From Candidatus Hermodarchaeota archaeon (lineage in GTDB: Archaea > Asgardarchaeota > Lokiarchaeia > Sigyniarchaeales > SOKP01): 64,000 bases of DNA. Positions 1,295 to 62,691 of this stretch are shown here, in pieces (the first letter of the stretch is position 1; every line of letters starts with the position of its first letter). Both the position numbers and the translations under genes were made by a program. Below the pieces are notes generated by a model. It saw only the letters and a list, made by a program, of their open reading frames with translations, ran no database searches and was not told the origin of the DNA. The stretch is from positions 20,643 to 84,642 of the forward strand of contig JBHLLP010000013.1 of assembly GCA_048885525.1 (NCBI GenBank), given 5' to 3'.

Positions 1295-1966
1295 TTGATT
1301 TTCCAATTTGATTTTACGGAACATATTTTAAAACCACTAGGAAAACTTGGTGGCTGGATAATGCTTCTTTTAGGGATAATGTGGTTAATCTATGCGGTTT
1401 ATGAGACAAAAAGGAGACAATCCTTTAAGAAAAGAAAAGTGGAAGACTGGGATTTTGATGTTACAAAATTCTTGAAAGCAATAACTTACATAGGATTCAT
1501 ACTAGGGTTACTAGCTTTAATCTCTGGTTTTTCTGGATTAATGTTTGATATTCCACCTAGTGTAGCTTATGCTACAACTACCGAGAATAGTCGAAATCTA
1601 TTTACATCTATACTCTTAATTATATTTGGGATTTTAACATTTGTAAAACCAGCAAACGATTTACCACTAGCAAGTATAATTGGTGTTTTAGCTGCAACTC
1701 TTGTGGTAATTATTTTAACTTTAGCAATCCCTCAGCAACTTGTTGATGTAATTGCTGTCTTTGTTAATCCTAAGATTTTGTTGGCTATAATCTTCCTAAT
1801 AATTTTTGCTATAGTGGCTCTTACAGCTAAATTTTATGTAAAAGTGTTCATGACCATATCGAAAGCAATTTCTTGGCCCCCTTTAGCAGTTATTTTTGCG
1901 ATCTTTTGTTTCATTCAAGGATTTCTACTATTAGCTGTTGGTGTTAGTATTTCAGGTTATTTCTAA
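1295..1966 (+). CDS. Hypothetical multi-pass membrane protein
   Basis: 223-aa ORF with about 6 hydrophobic segments, followed by a T-rich tract. Confidence 0.75.
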   Translation: MIFQFDFTEHILKPLGKLGGWIMLLLGIMWLIYAVYETKRRQSFKKRKVEDWDFDVTKFLKAITYIGFILGLLALISGFSGLMFDIPPSVAYATTTENSRNLFTSILLIIFGILTFVKPANDLPLASIIGVLAATLVVIILTLAIPQQLVDVIAVFVNPKILLAIIFLIIFAIVALTAKFYVKVFMTISKAISWPPLAVIFAIFCFIQGFLLLAVGVSISGYF

Positions 1967-10324: not shown

Positions 10325-11959
10325 TTATTCTAAAACATTTAATTTTTCCCGGATTATTCCTTCCATCGCTTCATTAATAAGTAATTTTTCTCTTAATTTT
10401 GAAACTCCTAACTGAAGTCTCTTTTTAAAGTTGGGATCTTTTATCAAATTTTTACGTTCAGATGAAAATTCAAAATTTGATCTTATAGCCATATCACTTT
10501 CGACCCTTTCCTTTAGAATGTTTTTTAAATTATAAAAATTCTCTGAAATATTTACATATATAGCGTCAGGGTCATTAATAATATAGCCTGGGAATACGAT
10601 ATTCATAGATTCTTCCATATTTGCCTCATCTTCAACAAACATTGTATAAATAGGCATATAAATCCATTGTATTGGTCTTGAAAATAAATCTGATTGATTA
10701 TCAGTGAGAGACCATTCTATTAATTTTTGAGCTTCATATAGACAATTATTATGTTTTATTTCTATAATACTCTTAATTTTTGTAAACAGTTGTTCTATTT
10801 GAGTTTTTAAATTATCTAACTCAGAAATCTTTGCTTGTTTTTCGCTCTCAATTTCAGTTAGTAATTTATTCCTGTCTTTAAGTTTTAAATCTAAAGAATC
10901 CTTAAATTTTGCTAATTTTTGTTTTGCTTCATCATTAATTTGTAAAGATCGTTTCTTCAACTCATTATATTTTTGAAATAACCCTTCAAGAGATTCCAAA
11001 AAATTTTTACCTTCTTGTTTTAAATAATCAAACTGTGTTTCAAAATGAGGTATGAGATCTTCAAAAACTCTACTTTTTAAAGAATCATCGCTCGTAAAGA
11101 ATTTATTTTTCTTAATAATTTCTTCAAGGTGTCTTTCAGATGTTTTAAATAAAGTAGACATGCTTTCAATTATCTTTTTCTTCTCATCAACATTCCATTG
11201 ATCGATTTTATCTTGTTCTAGTTTTATTTGCTCATCTACTTGATAGGTATCTATTGAAGAAGAAGTTTTACTGATTTGACTTGAATACCTTGAATCTATA
11301 TCTTTTAATTGAACATTTATATCTATAAGCCATTTGCTTACTTCTTTATCTATTAATTCAATTTGAGTTTTCCATCTTAACGCATTTCCCTTCATTGTAT
11401 TAATAATATTTCGATATTCTTCCGAAATATTTAGCGCATCTTCAGTAGAAATACTAGTATCTAAAACAGTATAATCTGTAATTGGTTTATATTCTATTAA
11501 TGGGATAATTTTAATTAGCGATTGAAGAAATTCAGGATTAATCAGACCATCAATTTTAAGAGTGTGAAATTCTGATTCCTCTCCTTCCCCGATCTCTTCT
11601 GCTTCTATATCTCTATATGATAATATATCAATTAATATATTTAATTGTTCAATTTTAGTTCTATTGTCAACATTTCTTAGTATATGACCGATTAACGGTT
11701 GACGAGGGGGATTCGAGAACTTATCAATTTTATTAAATAGATTCAATCCATCTAGCATTATATGAGTGGAAATTACTCCTTGAATACTTAAGATAGGCCA
11801 AAGAAGCCTAGAAAAAGATATAATCTTAGTATCTTTATTTAAATCTTTTGTTAATAGATAAAATGCTAGAGCTAATTCATCATTTCCTTGAATTGAAAGG
11901 GGATGTGCATCTTTTCTAATAAAAAAAGGTAATAAGTATTGATTTCCGTGGACAGACAT
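10325..11959 (-). CDS. Hypothetical protein with a long central coiled coil
   Basis: 544 aa; E/K/L-rich heptad core flanked by globular-looking termini. Confidence 0.75.
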   Translation of the reverse strand: MSVHGNQYLLPFFIRKDAHPLSIQGNDELALAFYLLTKDLNKDTKIISFSRLLWPILSIQGVISTHIMLDGLNLFNKIDKFSNPPRQPLIGHILRNVDNRTKIEQLNILIDILSYRDIEAEEIGEGEESEFHTLKIDGLINPEFLQSLIKIIPLIEYKPITDYTVLDTSISTEDALNISEEYRNIINTMKGNALRWKTQIELIDKEVSKWLIDINVQLKDIDSRYSSQISKTSSSIDTYQVDEQIKLEQDKIDQWNVDEKKKIIESMSTLFKTSERHLEEIIKKNKFFTSDDSLKSRVFEDLIPHFETQFDYLKQEGKNFLESLEGLFQKYNELKKRSLQINDEAKQKLAKFKDSLDLKLKDRNKLLTEIESEKQAKISELDNLKTQIEQLFTKIKSIIEIKHNNCLYEAQKLIEWSLTDNQSDLFSRPIQWIYMPIYTMFVEDEANMEESMNIVFPGYIINDPDAIYVNISENFYNLKNILKERVESDMAIRSNFEFSSERKNLIKDPNFKKRLQLGVSKLREKLLINEAMEGIIREKLNVLE

Positions 11960-12158
11960 GGACCATTCTTAAATTTTTAATTACATTCACATTATATATT
12001 TCAAATATATTAAATTTAAAGAGATTCAATTTTAAATTTTTAATCTTTTTTTGAGTAGTTATTTAAAAATTTACTTTTTTAAACTTCCTATTACTATCTG
12101 AAATCGGTTTTAGATAAATAATAATAAAAAATTGGAAAGAATGAAAAGTAGAATTGTT

Positions 12159-13016
12159 TTATTTAAGTTGTTCATAATTATTTGCAATTACCAAAATAAG
12201 AAGTGCTAATAATATTAGTAATGGGGGCATTACAGCTCTTAAATGGGGTAATGTAGCTACATCAAGTGCACCTTGCAGTATTCGCCCTCCAACAAAATAA
12301 AGTAAGAATCCAATTGCGTTTAAGGCATAAGACCTTCTTAAGACTCCAAACGTTTTATAAGCAAGATATAGAAAGATAAAAGGAATTAAAACAAGGAATA
12401 ATGGCATAAAAATAAAATTAAACAGAAATCTACCAAGAGGATATTCCCATGAACCAAATCTAATTAAAACTAAATCAACAGTAATACCTGGATAATCGTC
12501 TTCAAAATCGGGGTCCATAAATAGTCCATCTGATAATGTTAAAGCGAGAATGCCTATAATTATGGGGAGAACAAATAATCCTATCCGAATAAGTAATTTA
12601 ATATTCTTTTGATGTTTAAACCATGCTTTCAAAGACTTTTCTTCCCTTTTCTCCTCTTTTGTTTCAGGCGGAAATAAGAGGATTCCTAAAACTCCAACAG
12701 CACATGCTACACCTATCCAAGTAAAAAATGTAGCTAAACGAAAATTTAACATTAAAAATTCAACAACTTCAGTACTATTCCCTCCATCGAATAGTTCTGG
12801 TGCGAAAAAATAATATACAATGAAAAATACTCTCGCAATACCAAAACACAGGAAAAATAAACTAAAAAATAGCCAATATAACTTCCGTGAAGTTCTATAT
12901 CGCATGAATAAGAAGTAAAAAAATAAGAGGAAGAAGTAACCTACAATTACAAAATAGAGACCCATTTCTATCGCGTCCCAAAATCCAAAATACTGATAAG
13001 TGTCTTGAAACAACAT
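12159..13016 (-). CDS. Hypothetical seven-transmembrane protein
   Basis: Seven hydrophobic segments visible in 285 aa. Confidence 0.75.
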   Translation of the reverse strand: MLFQDTYQYFGFWDAIEMGLYFVIVGYFFLLFFYFLFMRYRTSRKLYWLFFSLFFLCFGIARVFFIVYYFFAPELFDGGNSTEVVEFLMLNFRLATFFTWIGVACAVGVLGILLFPPETKEEKREEKSLKAWFKHQKNIKLLIRIGLFVLPIIIGILALTLSDGLFMDPDFEDDYPGITVDLVLIRFGSWEYPLGRFLFNFIFMPLFLVLIPFIFLYLAYKTFGVLRRSYALNAIGFLLYFVGGRILQGALDVATLPHLRAVMPPLLILLALLILVIANNYEQLK

Positions 13017-13135
13017 AATAAGTCAATTTTTTTTATTACTTTAAATAATATTATTATCTTTTAGTTGTATAAAAATTTATTTCAATTTGAGTAATTCTTA
13101 AAATACAAATATTATCAATTACTTTTAAAATCTAT

Positions 13136-14629
13136 ATGAAAATCGAGAATAACATTGAGACGTTTAATTCATTACTAAAAAGAAGAGGATTCATATGGGG
13201 ACCTTCTCCTGAAATATATGGGGGATTTGCAGGTTTCTATTCCTATGGTCCAGCAGGGATGGCTCTTAAAAATAATATTTTAGATTTATTTAGGAAAGAA
13301 TGTCGTTATTTTGGATTTGGCGAGGTTGAATGCCCTACAATCATGCCAAGTATTGTTTGGGAAGCTTCAGGGCACTTAGAGAGGTTTATTGACCCTGTAA
13401 TGAGATGTAATAAATGTAATACATTATATAGAGCTGATCAATTTCTTCAAGAAAATTTACCAGACCTTGTAATTGATGGGTTATCATTTAAACAAATGGA
13501 GAATTTAATTAAAAAACACGAGTTGAAATGTCCAAAATGCGAAACTCCATTTCAGAAAATAGAAGAATATAATCTTATGTTAAAAACATCTGTAGGAAAT
13601 AATATTACTGCTTTTTTACGTCCAGAAACAGCTACCACCACTTATTTATTATTTAATCGTTTAGATCAAGATGCACGACGACAATATCCAATTAAAATTT
13701 TTCAATTCGGTAAAGCTTATCGGAATGAGATATCTCCTAGGCAAGGAGTTCTTAGAATGAGAGCATTTGATCAATTTGAACTCCAATTATTTATTAGTAA
13801 ACAGCAAGAAATGTCATTTGAGGATTATGAGGAAATTAAAATGAACGCACTACCGTTATTGGATTGGCAACTCCAAAAAAAAAATATTGATAAACCTCAG
13901 ACAATCTCACTTGAGAACGCAATTAAAACAAAACTTCTTAAAAAGCCAGCCTATGCATATTGTCTTTATATTACATACTATTTAACTAAAATATTAGGAA
14001 TGCCAGAAGAACTAATTAGATTTAGGCAACATTCTATAAATGAGCGTGCTCACTATGCTGATGATGCTTGGGATTTGGAAATAAAAACTAAACAATTTGG
14101 ATGGGTTGAAATTTGTGGAGTACATGACAGAACTGATTATGATTTAAGAAGACACGCAGAATATTCTAAACAAAATTTTGAAGTATCCATGGGGTCTGAT
14201 CCAAATATTAAAGAAATTCCTCAAGTTCTTGAAATCGCATTTGGGATCGATAGAATTATATATACTCTGCTTGAGACTACTTTTAAGGTTGAGGAAGGTA
14301 GAATAAATTTGAAACTCCATCCTAAATTAGCTCCTAATACAGTAGCAGTCTTTCCACTTGTTAAAAATAAAGAAAATATAAGAAAGTTGGCATTAAAAGT
14401 TCATAGAGAATTGTTAGAAAATCGGATTAGTTCATTTTTTGATGTTGCGGGTTCTATAGGAAAACGGTATAGGAGACAAGATGAGTTAGGAACTAAATGG
14501 TGTATAACTATAGATTATGAATCTTTAGATGATAATACTGTAACAATCAGAGAGCGTGATTCAATGGATCAACTAAGAGTTAGTATCTCAGATCTTGCTG
14601 CAATTATAAAAAAGAAGCAAGAAGAGTAA
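13136..14629 (+). CDS. glyS: Glycine--tRNA ligase (alpha2, archaeal/eukaryotic type)
   Basis: KRRGF, EIYGG, WEASGH, LRPETA, GKAYRNEISPRQG, AHYA, AFGIDR, SIGKRYRRQDELG. Confidence 0.97.
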   Translation: MKIENNIETFNSLLKRRGFIWGPSPEIYGGFAGFYSYGPAGMALKNNILDLFRKECRYFGFGEVECPTIMPSIVWEASGHLERFIDPVMRCNKCNTLYRADQFLQENLPDLVIDGLSFKQMENLIKKHELKCPKCETPFQKIEEYNLMLKTSVGNNITAFLRPETATTTYLLFNRLDQDARRQYPIKIFQFGKAYRNEISPRQGVLRMRAFDQFELQLFISKQQEMSFEDYEEIKMNALPLLDWQLQKKNIDKPQTISLENAIKTKLLKKPAYAYCLYITYYLTKILGMPEELIRFRQHSINERAHYADDAWDLEIKTKQFGWVEICGVHDRTDYDLRRHAEYSKQNFEVSMGSDPNIKEIPQVLEIAFGIDRIIYTLLETTFKVEEGRINLKLHPKLAPNTVAVFPLVKNKENIRKLALKVHRELLENRISSFFDVAGSIGKRYRRQDELGTKWCITIDYESLDDNTVTIRERDSMDQLRVSISDLAAIIKKKQEE

Positions 14630-56899: not shown

Positions 56900-58300
56900 T
56901 TAGTTATTTTTGTTTTTTATTTCTTTAAAGAGTTCAAACATCTTGTTTTCAATAAAATACCCACAGATAGGGCTAAAACTAGCAAGGGGTTCATATCCCC
57001 CTTCTTTAATATAATCTTTGGCAGGAAATAAATACGATATCCAATCATTAGAATTTTGAAATATAAAGGAATTATTTTTACCTGTGGGTGATTTTTTTAG
57101 AAACAAATCACCATATTCCTCAAAAAGTTCCCCTGGCACAGCCATAATACAAAATGATTGTGATTTTTTTTCATCATTAAAATTGAATTTGATAAATTGT
57201 ATTACGGTTTTCCCATGAATCTTTAATCCTTTTCGTTTTATAGAGAAAGTAGGAAAATTTGCGTCGTTTAAAATTATTTTAGCAACCTTCAGTAAAAGAT
57301 ATTTTTTAATCGCATAATTAAATTTATTCCTAAACCAAGTTTTCGAAAAATATTTAAAATCTTTCATAGGGATCCAGAAGATATTTAGATAGAATTGAAA
57401 TTCTAATTCATCCATATAATCATCTTTAGCTAACGATTTTGCTAAATTTAATGCTTCCTCAGCAATTATATATCCAATTTTTTTTGTGTGATTGTAAGTA
57501 CCTAACTGACCATAAATCAATGATTTATCAAGATCTAGTTTTTTGTAATCTGTTCCACATGTAGTAATTGGATTTAAGTCCCCTGAAGTACCATTAAAAA
57601 AAATTACACCAACATTATTATTTGTTAGTTGCGAAACTCTTTCTATAACTTTTCCTGGATAATCAGCCGATAGCTTGTTGTTTTGAAAGGATAATGTTGT
57701 TGGATGGCAAGAATAATTAATAATCAATCCAATTAAATTATTATTGTCTATATTAATGAAATTAATTACTCCCAATTCTGGAATTGACCGACGAATTGGA
57801 TGTCTTCTATTAACTACAATATCAGGATTAAACTTTTTTTTGGTCCATGCCATTTTACATGGAATTAAATTGTTTTTCAAATGTCCAACCATTTTAACTA
57901 TCTGATATACAAACCAGACAATGTAATCATCACTACAATTACTACCAAACATTATCCCTTTCATTACATTGAATAAACCACCCGGCCAATGAAATTCACC
58001 AGTAAGATCAGGCGCAGAATGAGTATGAGTACAATGAATTAAAATTTGGTCAGCTTCCAGAGATGGATCTTTTTTTTTAATTTTTCTCTTAATATAATCG
58101 CACAATGCGATTGGAATCTTTAATAAATCTAGTGATATTAATAATAATTCACTTCTTTCACTTTTTCCTACAATAAGAACTCCATATGCAAAAATATCAT
58201 CTAATTTACCCAAACATGGATGTTTTCGGGTATAACCCGCCATTGGTCTACCAATAAAATCTTTAGGTGTAATTTTAATTTTACTGAAAGAAACTCTCAT
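56900..58300 (-). CDS. Neutral/alkaline ceramidase-like amidohydrolase
   Basis: KITP..MAGY, THTHSAP, YSCHPT, SADYPG, GDLNP, VPGELF, GGYE. Confidence 0.82.
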   Translation of the reverse strand: MRVSFSKIKITPKDFIGRPMAGYTRKHPCLGKLDDIFAYGVLIVGKSERSELLLISLDLLKIPIALCDYIKRKIKKKDPSLEADQILIHCTHTHSAPDLTGEFHWPGGLFNVMKGIMFGSNCSDDYIVWFVYQIVKMVGHLKNNLIPCKMAWTKKKFNPDIVVNRRHPIRRSIPELGVINFINIDNNNLIGLIINYSCHPTTLSFQNNKLSADYPGKVIERVSQLTNNNVGVIFFNGTSGDLNPITTCGTDYKKLDLDKSLIYGQLGTYNHTKKIGYIIAEEALNLAKSLAKDDYMDELEFQFYLNIFWIPMKDFKYFSKTWFRNKFNYAIKKYLLLKVAKIILNDANFPTFSIKRKGLKIHGKTVIQFIKFNFNDEKKSQSFCIMAVPGELFEEYGDLFLKKSPTGKNNSFIFQNSNDWISYLFPAKDYIKEGGYEPLASFSPICGYFIENKMFELFKEIKNKNN

Positions 58301-58907: not shown

Positions 58908-60893
58908 ATGTCAGAACAAGTTTGTCGTTTTTGCCATAGTTATGTTAAGTTAGCTTATTATTGTGAAGAATGTGGCTCTAGTTGTTGTTCTGATTGTCTC
59001 CACGAAAAAAAAGTCAATTTTTATATTTGTCAAGATTGTAAATCTAAAAATATTAGGGTATTAGACTCTGAAAATAAGAAAGTTTGCCTGGATTGTGGCA
59101 AAACGAATATAGCTAAATCGAATCAACTTCTAAAAGCATGTCCTAAATGTAAATCTCACCAAATTATAAATATCTATGAGAAAAAGGAAGAACTGGAAAA
59201 AAACTTTTTAGAATTAATTAAAAGTACACGCTCTTTTGTTAATCCATTAAAAGAAATTATTGATAATCTATATAAATTTCAATCGAAAATCAGAGAGGTA
59301 AGAGATCCTCCAAATAAATGTTATCACTTTCCTAAAATGGAATCTGACTTGTTAGCTCTTTTTAAACTTTTTCTTTATATCCAGAATACTTTATTGGAAA
59401 AAATAAATGTTCACTTTCATCAATTAAATCAAAATAAAGAATATTTTTTTGATATATACTCTCAACCTAATTCAAATATAACAATTATTGAAGGAATTTT
59501 TGAAAATTTATTCAGAAGTTATTCTGCAATTGATGAGTTTATAACTACAAATCTACAAACATTCAATGATAGTTTTGAAACCTTTGAGAAAAATTTACAA
59601 TTTATCGCGAAGATAAGTTATTATTTTAGTTCATACAAGAAATTAATAAGACTTGCAGAAGGGGAAAAACCTGTTTATGCTATTTTTGCTAAATTAACTA
59701 ATGGATTAAATACTCAGGAAAAGTATAAGAAAGATAAAGGAATTTTATTTATCACCAATTATGATCTCTCATTTATCCATGAGTATGGTATATTTAAAAA
59801 GAAACAAGAATTAGTTTTTAAAGCTCCTGTTGAAGATTTAACACGAATAAAAGAAAAAGGTAAAATATTCAAAAAATTATATATTGAATTTGAATATGGA
59901 AAATATGAGTTTACATTGCCCCCCAAAGCTGTTTCTAGAGTAATTGAATACATTCTTTTAGCCAGATCTTTTGACGAAACTACAATCTATGACGAAAAAA
60001 CAGCGAAGAAACTTCAACAAATTAATATTGATTTAAATGAACTCATCAACTTTATTGAGGAATGTATTAATTCCTTCTTTAGTATAAAATGTCAGTATAA
60101 TAAAAGCTATGAAAATGTATATAATATTAATAAGGATTTAGCTAATTCCTTTAATTTTTACCCCAACCAAATAAATAATATTGCCTCTCCGGCATCAACT
60201 CGATTCATTTATCCACAAAATATGCTTCAACCTTGGCTGAAGGAAAAATATAGACCATATCCAAAAAGCCATAATTTTCTGGGAAATCCACAAAATATTC
60301 ATCCTTCTTCAATTCAAACACCTCAATTTATGCCAAACTATCCTCAAAGTAATAATGAAAATCATAGATTCTTCTTACAAAACGCTCATGAACAAAATCG
60401 CTTTCAAAATTATAATCCACAAAGATTGAATTCTGATAATGAATTACTTAACAAATTAAATCCTTATATTCCAAACCAAGGAGGAAGCATAACAAATCCT
60501 TACAATGAAGAGGAATATTTGCTAAATAGAGATAGTTTGTTCCAAGAATTTAATAGAAATCATTTAACGGATTTGTTTAATTCAGATTATTATCAACCGA
60601 TTAATTCTTACAAGTATAAGCGAAAATTATTCAAATTAGATAAAGAAAAACATGAAAAGATGATTGAACTAAACAAAGAAAGATATAGTTTGAAAGAAAC
60701 TCTAAAAAAATTAGATGCCAAATTCGATCAAGGAATTATATCTGAAGTAGATTATTTTAAAACCTTTAAGAACCTACAAAAAGAAATTTATTTAATCGAG
60801 AAAAAAATTCAAAAACTTCAGGAAAATATCGAAGAGGTTGAAGAACTAAAAAGAAGTAGCAGAAATTTTGATAAAAAACGATTTTATTCATAA
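58908..60893 (+). CDS. Multi-domain protein: Zn fingers, helical region, PH/GRAM-like domain, disordered linker, steadiness-box-like C-terminus (ESCRT-I-like)
   Basis: Six CxxC pairs; KGILFITNYDLSF PH-like strands; P/Q/N-rich tract; ERYSLKETLKKLDAKFDQGIISEVDYFKTFKNLQKEIY matches the Vps23/TSG101 SB pattern. Confidence 0.7.
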   Translation: MSEQVCRFCHSYVKLAYYCEECGSSCCSDCLHEKKVNFYICQDCKSKNIRVLDSENKKVCLDCGKTNIAKSNQLLKACPKCKSHQIINIYEKKEELEKNFLELIKSTRSFVNPLKEIIDNLYKFQSKIREVRDPPNKCYHFPKMESDLLALFKLFLYIQNTLLEKINVHFHQLNQNKEYFFDIYSQPNSNITIIEGIFENLFRSYSAIDEFITTNLQTFNDSFETFEKNLQFIAKISYYFSSYKKLIRLAEGEKPVYAIFAKLTNGLNTQEKYKKDKGILFITNYDLSFIHEYGIFKKKQELVFKAPVEDLTRIKEKGKIFKKLYIEFEYGKYEFTLPPKAVSRVIEYILLARSFDETTIYDEKTAKKLQQINIDLNELINFIEECINSFFSIKCQYNKSYENVYNINKDLANSFNFYPNQINNIASPASTRFIYPQNMLQPWLKEKYRPYPKSHNFLGNPQNIHPSSIQTPQFMPNYPQSNNENHRFFLQNAHEQNRFQNYNPQRLNSDNELLNKLNPYIPNQGGSITNPYNEEEYLLNRDSLFQEFNRNHLTDLFNSDYYQPINSYKYKRKLFKLDKEKHEKMIELNKERYSLKETLKKLDAKFDQGIISEVDYFKTFKNLQKEIYLIEKKIQKLQENIEEVEELKRSSRNFDKKRFYS

Positions 60894-60935
60894 AAAATTT
60901 TTTTAGGATTTTTATGCTAAATCTGCATATTTATT

Positions 60936-61976
60936 TTGTTTTATATTTATATTTTTTTTATTATTCTATCTCATATGGATACCACAGTCGTCGGAAGCTG
61001 GCCTTTAGGTAATAATCATAAAAATATGCTAAGAATTTTTTCAGATTTAATTCAAATAGGTATTGATTTTCCATGCTACCCACAACTCTTATCAATGACA
61101 CACCAATTCTTAAATCCTTTATCTGAAATAATTCCTCAAATAAAAAAATTAGAAGAAAAATTTTATTTATATGAGGATTTTGAATTACCTAAACAACCAA
61201 TTGCCTTGGAATATGGAAAATTTATTATTGATTTTTTTAATGAACACCCTGATCTTAAAACATTAATTAAAGGTACAAAAGCTTGCCTAACTGGACCATT
61301 CACCTTAACATTTGAGACAATCCTGAAAAATGATCTTGCTAAAGATTTAAAACCAATAATGTTCGAAGAACCAAGAGCAGTTATGGTAGATTGGATTGTG
61401 GATAAATTTGCTGAAATTATAAAGCAAGTAGCTTTTGCCTATAACGATATGGGAATAGATATTATTTCTTGCGATGAACCTATACTTGGCTTATTAGTAG
61501 GCAGGAAGATTTTATTCCATTCAGAAGATTTTATAATCAGTACTATTAATAAAGCAATATCAGGGATAAAAGGCTTGTCATCTATACATGTATGTGGAAG
61601 TATTAGTCCTAATTTACGCGATCTTCTTTTAAAAACAAATGTGAAGATTTTGGATCATGAATTCAGTACTAATGAGCAAAATTTTAAGATTTTTGAACAG
61701 AAACATTTCCAAGAAGCTGATAAATACTTAGCTTTGGGAACAGTTGAATCAAAATTTACTCCTCTTCCTAATAAAAAAATATATGATTATGTAGAAAAAG
61801 TCGAGTTTCTTAAAGCATTTATAAGGAGAGGCATAGAAAAATATGGGAGAGAGAATTTAATTATTAAACCTGATTGTGGATTTTACCCATTAAAGGTTTT
61901 CGGAGAACAAGATGGTTACGAAATAGCAATTAAAAAAGTGAAAAATATGGTTCTCGCCTTAAATGAATTAAAATAG
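60936..61976 (+). CDS. Single-barrel (core) cobalamin-independent methionine synthase-like protein
   Basis: TTVVGSWP, YPQL, KACLTGPFTL, DEP, Zn ligands HVCG / HEF / KPDCGF; probable start at the internal MDTTVVGS. Confidence 0.8.
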   Translation: MFYIYIFFIILSHMDTTVVGSWPLGNNHKNMLRIFSDLIQIGIDFPCYPQLLSMTHQFLNPLSEIIPQIKKLEEKFYLYEDFELPKQPIALEYGKFIIDFFNEHPDLKTLIKGTKACLTGPFTLTFETILKNDLAKDLKPIMFEEPRAVMVDWIVDKFAEIIKQVAFAYNDMGIDIISCDEPILGLLVGRKILFHSEDFIISTINKAISGIKGLSSIHVCGSISPNLRDLLLKTNVKILDHEFSTNEQNFKIFEQKHFQEADKYLALGTVESKFTPLPNKKIYDYVEKVEFLKAFIRRGIEKYGRENLIIKPDCGFYPLKVFGEQDGYEIAIKKVKNMVLALNELK

Positions 61977-62040
61977 ATAAATTAAATTTAAGGTTGGCAA
62001 AGATTAATATTAAAAATTAAAATTAATTTACAAAAAATAT

Positions 62041-62691
62041 TTATCCTTGTAATTCCTTGCGAAGTTTTTCGATCTCATCTTTTAATTGATCTTTAGATTT
62101 AACTTCAGCTTCTTCCTCTAATTCGTCAAACTCAGGTATATATTGCAAATCATCTGAAGGAATTTCAGGCATTGCCCCTCCTTGATCTAGAAGCATTTCG
62201 GTTTCAAGTTGATTTAATTCATCTGTTACATCAATAGCAAAGTCAATCTCTGGATCACCAGCTAAAATGTCTGCAGCTTCTTCAATTTCAGCAACATATG
62301 CTTCAGAATCCTCTGCAATTTCAGCTACTTTAGTGGGTGATGCTTTAGTTGCTATATATTCAAGCTCATCTCTTATACCTCCCATAACATCGCCTGTTTG
62401 AGAGATAAGCATACCTTCTTCTATCGCTTGAATCTGTCTTTCTATTTTTAATCTGATATTATTAGATCGATCAACCTTCGCTTGATAGGCTTTATATTGA
62501 ACAAGATAATTTTTAGCTCGATCTTTTTCTCCCCGTTTTAAAGCAATTTTTGCATTTTTCCGACTGATCTCAGCACGTTTAGTGTAATTTTTGTTCATCA
62601 TATTTAATTTGTGTATATGTCCTTTTGCTTTTGCCACTAAATCATCCTTTTCTTTACCTTTACGAGGAAAAAGTTTCTTTTTTAGACCCAT
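62041..62691 (-). CDS. snf7: Snf7-family ESCRT-III subunit (Vps20/32/60, CHMP4-7-like)
   Basis: Basic N-terminal half (AKIALKRGEKDRAKNYL...QIQAIE), acidic C-terminal half (EIEEAADILAG..DELNQLE), MPEIP and EIEKLRKEL tail motifs. Confidence 0.88.
   Translation of the reverse strand: MGLKKKLFPRKGKEKDDLVAKAKGHIHKLNMMNKNYTKRAEISRKNAKIALKRGEKDRAKNYLVQYKAYQAKVDRSNNIRLKIERQIQAIEEGMLISQTGDVMGGIRDELEYIATKASPTKVAEIAEDSEAYVAEIEEAADILAGDPEIDFAIDVTDELNQLETEMLLDQGGAMPEIPSDDLQYIPEFDELEEEAEVKSKDQLKDEIEKLRKELQG

Follow-up and report, generated by a model that had tools for sequence, protein, structure and literature searches.

The closest described relatives of the locus reported here belong to an Asgard-specific protein family named Znr_CC_PH_SB or Znr_PH_CC_SB (asCOG cog.011556), in which zinc modules, a helical region, a PH domain and a steadiness box (SB) follow one another in a single polypeptide, and which was inferred to be a putative ESCRT-I-like, membrane-sensing adaptor (Makarova et al., 2024, mBio, PMC10936438, section 6). 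The zinc region of the family was read there as three zinc ribbons, and the member from Lokiarchaeum GC14_75 is tabulated (Table S2, cog.011556; 11247..13199, As_004-p_01543) in the gene order PepD, L35Ae, Znr_CC_PH_SB, MetE, Vps20(-), DHQS. Two ESCRT-III classes are distinguished in these archaea, ESCRT-IIIA and ESCRT-IIIB, the latter with an initiator role (PMC11804906), and a CHMP4-7 filament of Loki GC14_75 has been solved (9fn1; PMC11791191). The texts of three ESCRT-III papers, PMC11791191 included, make no mention of a Znr_CC_PH_SB neighbour.

A further member of the Znr_CC_PH_SB family

The window (the whole stretch of 64,000 nucleotides analysed) holds the following features at this locus:

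58908..60893, + strand: Znr_CC_PH_SB gene (661 aa), ATG start, assigned to asCOG cog.011556
58908..59171, + strand: three Cys4 zinc modules, residues 1-88, with six CxxC knuckles
59172..59633, + strand: helical bundle at residues 89-242 (AF2), to which the "CC" in the family name refers
59664..59969, + strand: PH-superfold domain, GRAM/GLUE-like, residues 253-354 (domain model pLDDT 90.9)
59970..60146, + strand: post-PH helices, residues 355-413 (AF2 H355-358, H363-371, H377-413)
60147..60614, + strand: disordered N/Q/P/S/Y-rich linker, residues 414-569 (AF2 pLDDT <50)
60639..60815, + strand: steadiness-box-like helical hairpin, Pfam Vps23_core match at residues 578-636 within helices 565-658
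60858..60890, + strand: conserved C-terminal tail, SRNFDxKRF[YF][ST]-like, shared by the closer (Lokiarchaeial) sequences in the alignment and missing from distant ones
60936..61976, + strand: metE-like gene between the Znr_CC_PH_SB and ESCRT-IIIB genes (Pfam Meth_synt_2, E 4.2e-10), context only
62041..62691, - strand: ESCRT-IIIB gene, B-type (Vps20/32/60 = CHMP4-7; Pfam Snf7, E 8.8e-11)

The initiator methionine of the 661-aa protein is invariant in a 40-sequence alignment, and more than 260 full-length homologues with 50-85% identity were found in Promethearchaeota/Lokiarchaeia MAGs. The 650-aa LCGC14_0616310 protein (labelled "SB domain-containing protein" in UniRef) is 56% identical over 100% of the query, and its length and gene order are those of the Table S2 entry; from length, source and synteny we infer that it is the same protein as As_004-p_01543. 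Because of this full-length homology and of the matching length and gene order, the 661-aa protein is, as judged from its sequence, a member of cog.011556 and thus of the published family. The domain order is that of the family, and the flanks in common comprise PepD, L35Ae, MetE (at the same place in Lokiarchaeum GC14_75), a minus-strand Vps20-family ESCRT-III and DHQS, the metE-like and L35Ae neighbours being as an earlier note on this DNA had stated (Pfam). An additional ceramidase-like ORF lies between PepD and L35Ae in this genome compared with the Lokiarchaeum GC14_75 locus, and the zinc region may correspond to a B-box-like finger plus a ribbon as opposed to three ribbons, but no essential difference from the published proteins was found.

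Architecture and locus were therefore already published in 2024 (PMC10936438), and the window adds one more member; the merger of Zn, PH and SB elements that the earlier note had pointed out is not new. Its domain calls (the ORF, Zn modules, helical bundle, PH/GRAM-like fold, disordered linker and SB hairpin, with no UEV) were all upheld by AF2, Pfam, profile and fold searches, and its idea of a membrane-sensing adaptor of ESCRT-I type agrees with what was inferred for the family.

Domains of the 661-residue protein

In the AF2 model, most 10-residue blocks between residues 11 and 400 have a pLDDT of 81-97, with 74 at residues 1-10 and 58 at 401-410. The six CxxC pairs named beforehand are all present (C6/C9, C19/C22, C27/C30, C41/C44, C60/C63 and C78/C81) and make up the three N-terminal zinc modules of the family; 12/12 Cys are invariant in 38-40 aligned homologues, down to 16% identity, and beta hairpins are modelled across residues 1-88. 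Pfam matches in this region vary from member to member (DZR 25/38, zf-B_box 21/38, ANCHR-like B-box 11/38, FYVE 6/38 with a best E of 9.6e-4), and the zinc-region profile matches RING/B-box proteins in the PDB over the first eight Cys and zinc ribbons over the later ones. These matches bear on an alternative that we regard as unlikely, namely that Cys 1-8 form a cross-braced RING/B-box-type finger recognising or transferring ubiquitin-like modifiers, by which tagged cargo would be passed to ESCRT. The profile over Cys 1-8 does retrieve RNF4 (1.1e-5), RING1B, the B-boxes of TRIM2/TRIM21/KAP1 and MID1 B-box1, and several homologues are named "B-box zinc finger protein" by NCBI; however, DZR is the commoner Pfam match, and ligands 4 and 5 are spaced by 4 residues as against 2-3 in RING fingers. 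The three-ribbon reading of PMC10936438 also argues against it.

The helical bundle, announced as roughly 160 aa, measures 154 aa and consists of H89-110, H112-132, H144-175, H177-181 and H188-242 (pLDDT 88-97 per 10-residue block), with R132 and H140 invariant in the alignment; its profile retrieved only generic coiled coils from the PDB, such as viral HR1 and MCP. A second helical stretch follows the PH domain, with pLDDT 86-96 up to residue 400, so that the coiled-coil/helical part of the family architecture is represented by AF2 helices 89-242 and 355-413.

Between them, the strand set predicted at 253-352 as PH/GRAM-like proved to be seven strands plus a helix, contiguous over residues 255-353, and the PH fold was confirmed by fold search. 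Such a search was required to identify the domain, since its sequence profile gave only chance-level kinase matches in the PDB (E 0.23). Foldseek retrieved the Lam6 PH-like domain (5yqr, E 4.8e-5), the Vps36 GLUE domain in second place (2cay, E 1.1e-4) and the MTMR2 PH-GRAM; VIA gave Z 13.2 for 5yqr (Lam6) and 13.1 for 1lw3 (MTMR2 PH-GRAM), the top of its 50 listed matches consisting of PH-superfold domains (PH, PTB, GRAM, FERM-C, Ran-binding). The PH domain of the published architecture is thus present here, and Pfam recognises bPH_3 in 12/40 members and GRAM in 6/40 over the same region. All 40 members carry a net positive charge in the PH core (median +7.5), the conserved basic residues being K262, K297-299, K322-323 and R353. 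DH-PH tandems of RhoGEFs headed the full-length Foldseek list (E about 1e-6) but were rejected as homologues (TM <=0.36 in either normalisation, rmsd about 20 Å), and the match is read as one of long modelled helices plus a PH domain, not of DH homology.

The linker, expected at about residues 401-571, has pLDDT <50 over 413-569. Among 40 members it measures between 92 and 402 aa; most members are N/Q/P/S/Y-rich here and a few distant ones G/A/R/D-rich. P[ST]xP late-domain motifs are not enriched in the linkers (10 observed, 10.6 expected from shuffled sequences), and NPY and YPx(1-3)[LIMV] stand only about 2-2.7 SD above the shuffled expectation, for which reason neither was called as a late-domain motif.

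The C-terminus folds in the AF2 model into a hairpin of two helices (H565-607/H613-658, pLDDT about 90). Its top Pfam match is Vps23_core, covering residues 578-636 and profile positions 6-64 of 64, although sub-threshold (E 0.0073; 16.7 bits against a gathering score of 26.8), and on this and the profile matches that follow the hairpin was taken as the SB of the published family; the same model reaches E<=0.01 in 10/40 members (best 8.5e-4). The family SB profile retrieved yeast Vps23 (2p22_A 1.3e-4, 2f66_A 1.7e-3, 2caz_A 8.3e-3), TSG101 (6vme_B 0.06) and VPS37B (6vme_C 0.19), the alignment to 2p22_A being gapless over 56 residues and spanning both helices. Designed coiled coils head the PDB list and score as well against helix 1, helical hairpins carrying little information. 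The earlier assignment of this segment to the SB nevertheless holds, the SBs of Vps23, TSG101 and VPS37B being the best natural matches, and SHOCT gave no Pfam match at E<=1 and none in the family-wide matches. No UEV was matched in the 661-aa protein (Pfam, E<=1) or in a Pfam search of the whole genome; control genomes being likewise silent, the latter search has no bearing on the presence of a Vps23-UEV gene.

The ESCRT-III neighbour and its linkage

The ESCRT-IIIB gene is convergent with the Znr_CC_PH_SB gene and lies 1147 bp downstream, in line with the distance of about 1.15 kb given beforehand. Its product matches 9fn1_U ("Vps20/32/60-like protein", E 4.2e-104) and, over the Snf7 core, the Heimdall ESCRT-IIIB 9ftl_A (1.5e-6); by sequence, it is orthologous to 9fn1 and of B-type, closer to CHMP4-7 than to CHMP1-3. 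Only two Snf7 genes were found in the genome. The other copy is of A-type, matching CHMP2A, CHMP1B and Vps24, and is clustered with Vps22, Vps25 and Vps4 on another contig (C26:26343-29965), while Vps28 is on contig C8 (C8:57052-57600) and the SB-fused Vps22 occupies C26:26343-26999. Accordingly, the neighbour is the sole B-type (initiator-type) ESCRT-III of this genome, partnering the A-type copy on C26, and the locus belongs to the one ESCRT system of the genome, whose genes are dispersed; the earlier proposal of a second ESCRT module is wrong.

The linkage of the two genes, which the earlier note had put forward as a check, is strongly conserved. They are convergent within 3 kb in 75/86 Asgard genomes from 10 GTDB families, counted over genomes in which both genes were located (70/81 in nine families and 5/5 in the tenth). 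Within the same GTDB family the pair is 69-171 bp apart in 18 genomes and separated by a spacer of about 1.2 kb in 14, and in one family the genes are about 30 kb apart. This conservation weighs on the possibility that the protein is not an ESCRT component at all, its C-terminus being just a coiled-coil hairpin of generic kind and its place beside snf7 inherited synteny without function. The sub-threshold SB score, the designed coiled coils at the top of the PDB list and the housekeeping genes around the locus (L35Ae, metE, DHQS) would fit such a view, which we nonetheless consider very improbable, given that the natural top PDB matches over both helices are all ESCRT-I steadiness boxes and that the adjacency persists across the 10 families, where protein identity is down to 20-30%, and has withstood the insertion of a gene between the two. 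The linkage and the basic PH core in all 40 members are what the present analysis adds to the published family, and both agree with a putative membrane adaptor that would act ahead of the initiating ESCRT-III and be coupled to it. Since convergent genes do not share a transcript, their adjacency speaks only indirectly for a link in function.

A candidate membrane adaptor of a single ESCRT pathway

Compared with ESCRT-I, the C-terminal SB hairpin is held in common with Vps23/TSG101 and Vps37, including the gapless alignment to 2p22, the ESCRT-I core structure with yeast Vps23; unlike Vps23/TSG101, Znr_CC_PH_SB has no UEV, carrying zinc modules and a PH domain instead, and has a disordered linker in the place of the ESCRT-I stalk coiled coil. 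With Vps36 (ESCRT-II) it shares a PH fold and zinc fingers in one ESCRT-related polypeptide, whereas its PH domain is contiguous and not split by NZF inserts, its zinc modules are N-terminal, winged-helix domains are lacking (no EAP30/wH match) and the closest folds found for it are of GRAM type (Lam6, MTMR2). Hrs/Vps27 (ESCRT-0) is more distant, since no VHS was matched, FYVE appears in few members and P[ST]xP stays at its shuffled expectation.

We favour the reading, with a probability of about 0.6, that Znr_CC_PH_SB is a candidate ESCRT-I-like membrane adaptor upstream of the single ESCRT pathway of this genome. The basic PH domain would bring the protein to anionic membrane, and the SB hairpin would dock on ESCRT-I/II subunits that carry an SB themselves (Vps28, free SB proteins and SB-fused Vps22), as Vps23, Vps28 and Vps37 do when they make up the ESCRT-I headpiece. 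Cargo or partners may be engaged by the zinc modules and the linker. The product of the tail-to-tail partner gene, ESCRT-IIIB (CHMP4-7), is the first subunit to bind flat membrane and thereafter recruits ESCRT-IIIA. Recruitment of ESCRT-III by the adaptor and condensate formation through its linker, both suggested in the earlier note, would be putative functions. Against the adaptor reading stand the sub-threshold SB match, the indirect nature of the linkage evidence, the family in which the pair is about 30 kb apart, and a published two-hybrid link of ESCRT-IIIB to Vps25 (PMC9192718).

It is also possible, although we hold it doubtful, that the protein nucleates ESCRT-IIIB directly, with its PH domain on the membrane and a contact of its own with ESCRT-IIIB, bypassing ESCRT-I/II; its function would then be analogous to that of Thermoproteota CdvA or of the eukaryotic Bro1/ALIX and Vps25. 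The near phylum-wide tail-to-tail adjacency is with the B-type subunit specifically and never with the A-type, and the need of Asgard ESCRT-IIIB for at least 40% DOPS to nucleate in vitro suggests a cellular nucleator (PMC11804906). Similarity of the SB hairpin to CdvA by HHpred and Zn-ribbon/coiled-coil/CdvA-like proteins in Thermoproteales have also been reported (PMC10936438). CdvA, the recruiter of cell-division ESCRT-III, has in common with Znr_CC_PH_SB a membrane-binding module (predicted here) and a helical hairpin beside an ESCRT-III gene; unlike CdvA, however, Znr_CC_PH_SB lacks both a PRC barrel and an E3B peptide, and the ESCRT-IIIB here has no wH to receive one, so that the resemblance would be functional only. 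Against direct nucleation, a published yeast two-hybrid assay, from which Znr_CC_PH_SB was left out, already links ESCRT-IIIB to Vps25 (PMC9192718), the convergent pair forms no operon, and no wH, Bro1 or E3B-like element was matched in the 661-aa protein (Pfam, family-wide). A dedicated membrane-bound nucleator of this kind might have been an upstream factor of ancestral origin that eukaryotes have since lost or replaced, in the role of CdvA, Bro1 or Vps25; this tentative suggestion draws on the retention of the tail-to-tail pairing in 10 GTDB families.

The wider interest lies in the question of how, in the archaea related to eukaryotes, ESCRT-III polymers are directed to their membranes; purified Asgard ESCRT-IIIB nucleates only on unphysiologically anionic bilayers (PMC11804906). 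Znr_CC_PH_SB stands alone among ESCRT-linked proteins of Asgard archaea in having an evident, predicted membrane-binding domain, and, its gene being nearly always paired with that of the initiator subunit, it would be an obvious candidate for the existing reconstitution assays.

A known family and its locus

The window genes that matter here are as follows.
56900-58300, minus strand: ceramidase-like ORF, 466 aa, between PepD and L35Ae
58908..60893, plus strand: adaptor gene, ATG-started ORF, 661 aa
60936-61976, plus strand: metE-like ORF, between the adaptor gene and the Snf7 gene
62041..62691, minus strand: Snf7 gene (ESCRT-IIIB), convergent with the adaptor gene and 1147 bp downstream

The adaptor is an ordinary member of an already known family. 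The same architecture was published as Znr_PH_CC_SB / Znr_CC_PH_SB (asCOG cog.011556) by Makarova et al. (2024, mBio, PMC10936438), who regard it as a likely ESCRT-I component, probably already present in the ancestor of Asgardarchaeota, and who expect its PH domain to associate with membranes. The Lokiarchaeum GC14_75 member (650 aa) lies in the order PepD, L35Ae, Znr_CC_PH_SB, MetE, Vps20-family ESCRT-III (minus) and 3-dehydroquinate synthase (Table S2, PMC10936438); the window repeats this order save for the additional ceramidase-like ORF, which has no counterpart at that position in GC14_75. A 650-aa LCGC14 protein shares 56% identity with the adaptor over its full length. The present work has thus rediscovered, independently, a family and a locus that were already in print. 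Full-length homologues number more than 260 in Promethearchaeota/Lokiarchaeia assemblies, and 177 of the 201 Asgard genomes sampled contain detectable relatives.

The 466-aa ORF matches the Pfam neutral/alkaline ceramidase N-terminal domain below threshold (E 3.4e-6, 26.4 bits; cut-off 32.1). The metE-like ORF was called from TTG, giving an odd hydrophobic leader; an ATG 13 codons downstream (MDTTVVGSW...) seems a better candidate for the start.

Domain set of the adaptor

All six CxxC pairs listed in the earlier note are present in the ORF, and the 12 cysteines and M1 are invariant across 40 aligned homologues with identities down to 16%, so the zinc sites and the start codon are real. In the AlphaFold2 model built from this alignment, the folded N-terminal half is confident (residues 11-400, where most 10-residue blocks have pLDDT 81-97), 413-569 is disordered (pLDDT <50) and a helical hairpin (H565-607/H613-658) is again confident; the segment limits agree to within a few residues with the coordinates of the earlier note. 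The helical bundle and PH tandem retrieves DH-PH RhoGEF structures as top Foldseek matches (E 1.7e-6) with low TM scores, a likeness of the full-length model that is probably architectural only.

The fold class of the zinc region is ambiguous between ribbon and RING/B-box. Double-zinc-ribbon and B-box models each match many family members, and the published account reads the cysteine modules as zinc ribbons (PMC10936438). The first eight cysteines (window 58908-59050, plus strand) have a B-box1-like spacing, C-x2-C-x9-C-x2-C-x4-C-x2-C-x10-C-x2-C, over which RING/B-box E3 proteins match the region's profile at E about 1e-5; a ubiquitin-linked role of this type is a smaller possibility.

The middle domain, proposed as PH/GRAM-like, adopts the PH superfold. 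Modelled by itself (pLDDT 90.9), it retrieves the Lam6 PH-like domain (5yqr), Vps36 GLUE (2cay) and MTMR2 PH-GRAM at the top Foldseek ranks, and PH-superfold domains occupy the top of an exhaustive VIA search (best 50 rows; Z 13.2 for 5yqr, 13.1 for 1lw3). Single members match Pfam bPH_3 (12/40) or GRAM (6/40). Its surface is basic: the net charge of the PH core is positive in 40/40 members and has a median of +7.5, basic residues are conserved at K262, K297-299, K322-323 and R353, and the other domains are near neutral.

Linker length ranges between 92 and 402 aa among the members, most of which have a linker rich in N/Q/P/S/Y, with no enrichment in P[ST]xP motifs. For the hairpin the top Pfam match is Vps23_core; the match takes in almost all of the profile at a score under the gathering threshold, and 10/40 members match it at E<=0.01. 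Against the PDB, the hairpin profile finds yeast Vps23 in three ESCRT-I core structures (E 1.3e-4 to 8e-3), TSG101 (E 0.06) and VPS37B (E 0.19), the best alignment running without gaps through the two helices. Designed coiled coils reach similar scores, but over helix 1 only. SHOCT, an alternative to the steadiness box (SB) named in the earlier note, has no Pfam match in the adaptor or among family members. The extreme C-terminus, SRNFDxKRF[YF][ST] (window 60858-60890, plus strand), is shared only by the closer homologues, which are Lokiarchaeial (alignment A2, of adaptor homologues), and could be a short docking motif; it is not known to resemble the MIM1 or MIM2 consensus.

Pairing with the ESCRT-IIIB gene

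The adaptor and ESCRT-IIIB genes form a conserved pair. The 201 Asgard genomes were searched with the family profile and the window Snf7 protein, and linkage was counted among the 81 with both genes listed. In 70 of these, from nine GTDB families, the adaptor gene is followed within 3 kb by the ESCRT-III gene in convergent orientation, with a gap of at most 600 bp in 52; in 8 of the 11 others the two genes fall on separate contigs. The convergent pairing is also present in 5/5 genomes of a tenth family, which the Snf7 protein query did not pick up but a Pfam Snf7 search did. The convergent Snf7 gene, noted earlier at about 1.15 kb, is a conserved neighbour. The linked partner is always the copy best matching the B-type query (for the tenth family, the one of its two Pfam Snf7 copies with the lower score). 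Within the window's own GTDB family, 14 of 32 linked genomes have the metE-like gene between the pair, a spacer of about 1.2 kb, and the 18 that lack it there have the pair 69-171 bp apart; in one family (f5) the genes are about 30 kb apart. The literature texts searched contain no discussion of the pairing, though it is visible in Table S2 (PMC10936438).

One dispersed ESCRT system

The observation in the earlier note is confirmed and its interpretation partly supported: the domains were right, but the locus, put forward there as a candidate second ESCRT module, is one part of a single system. Only two Snf7 genes occur in the genome, which is 99% complete. One of them, on contig C26 and adjoining Vps22, Vps25 and Vps4, resembles CHMP2A, CHMP1B and Vps24 and is therefore the A-type subunit. 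The other, in the window, encodes an orthologue of the Loki CHMP4-7 protein whose structure is PDB 9fn1 (E 4e-104; PMC11791191), with Heimdall ESCRT-IIIB as second-closest match. With the Vps28 gene on a third contig, the two Snf7 genes indicate one dispersed system. On contig C70, an 807-aa ORF carries the C-terminal half only of the VPS28 profile (1511-1786, minus strand; E 1.5e-5); it probably belongs to the multidomain Vps28_C proteins that have been reported from Lokiarchaeia.

In current nomenclature B-type ESCRT-III comprises Vps20/32/60, the first to bind flat membrane, which recruits ESCRT-IIIA (PMC11804906). In the proposed role, the PH domain would bind anionic membrane, the SB hairpin would join further subunits that bear an SB (Vps28, free SB proteins, SB-fused Vps22) and the adaptor would work upstream of ESCRT-IIIB. 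The main rival reading is that the adaptor nucleates ESCRT-IIIB directly, in the fashion of CdvA or Bro1. What is added to the published family is modest, a quantified pairing of the adaptor and ESCRT-IIIB genes.
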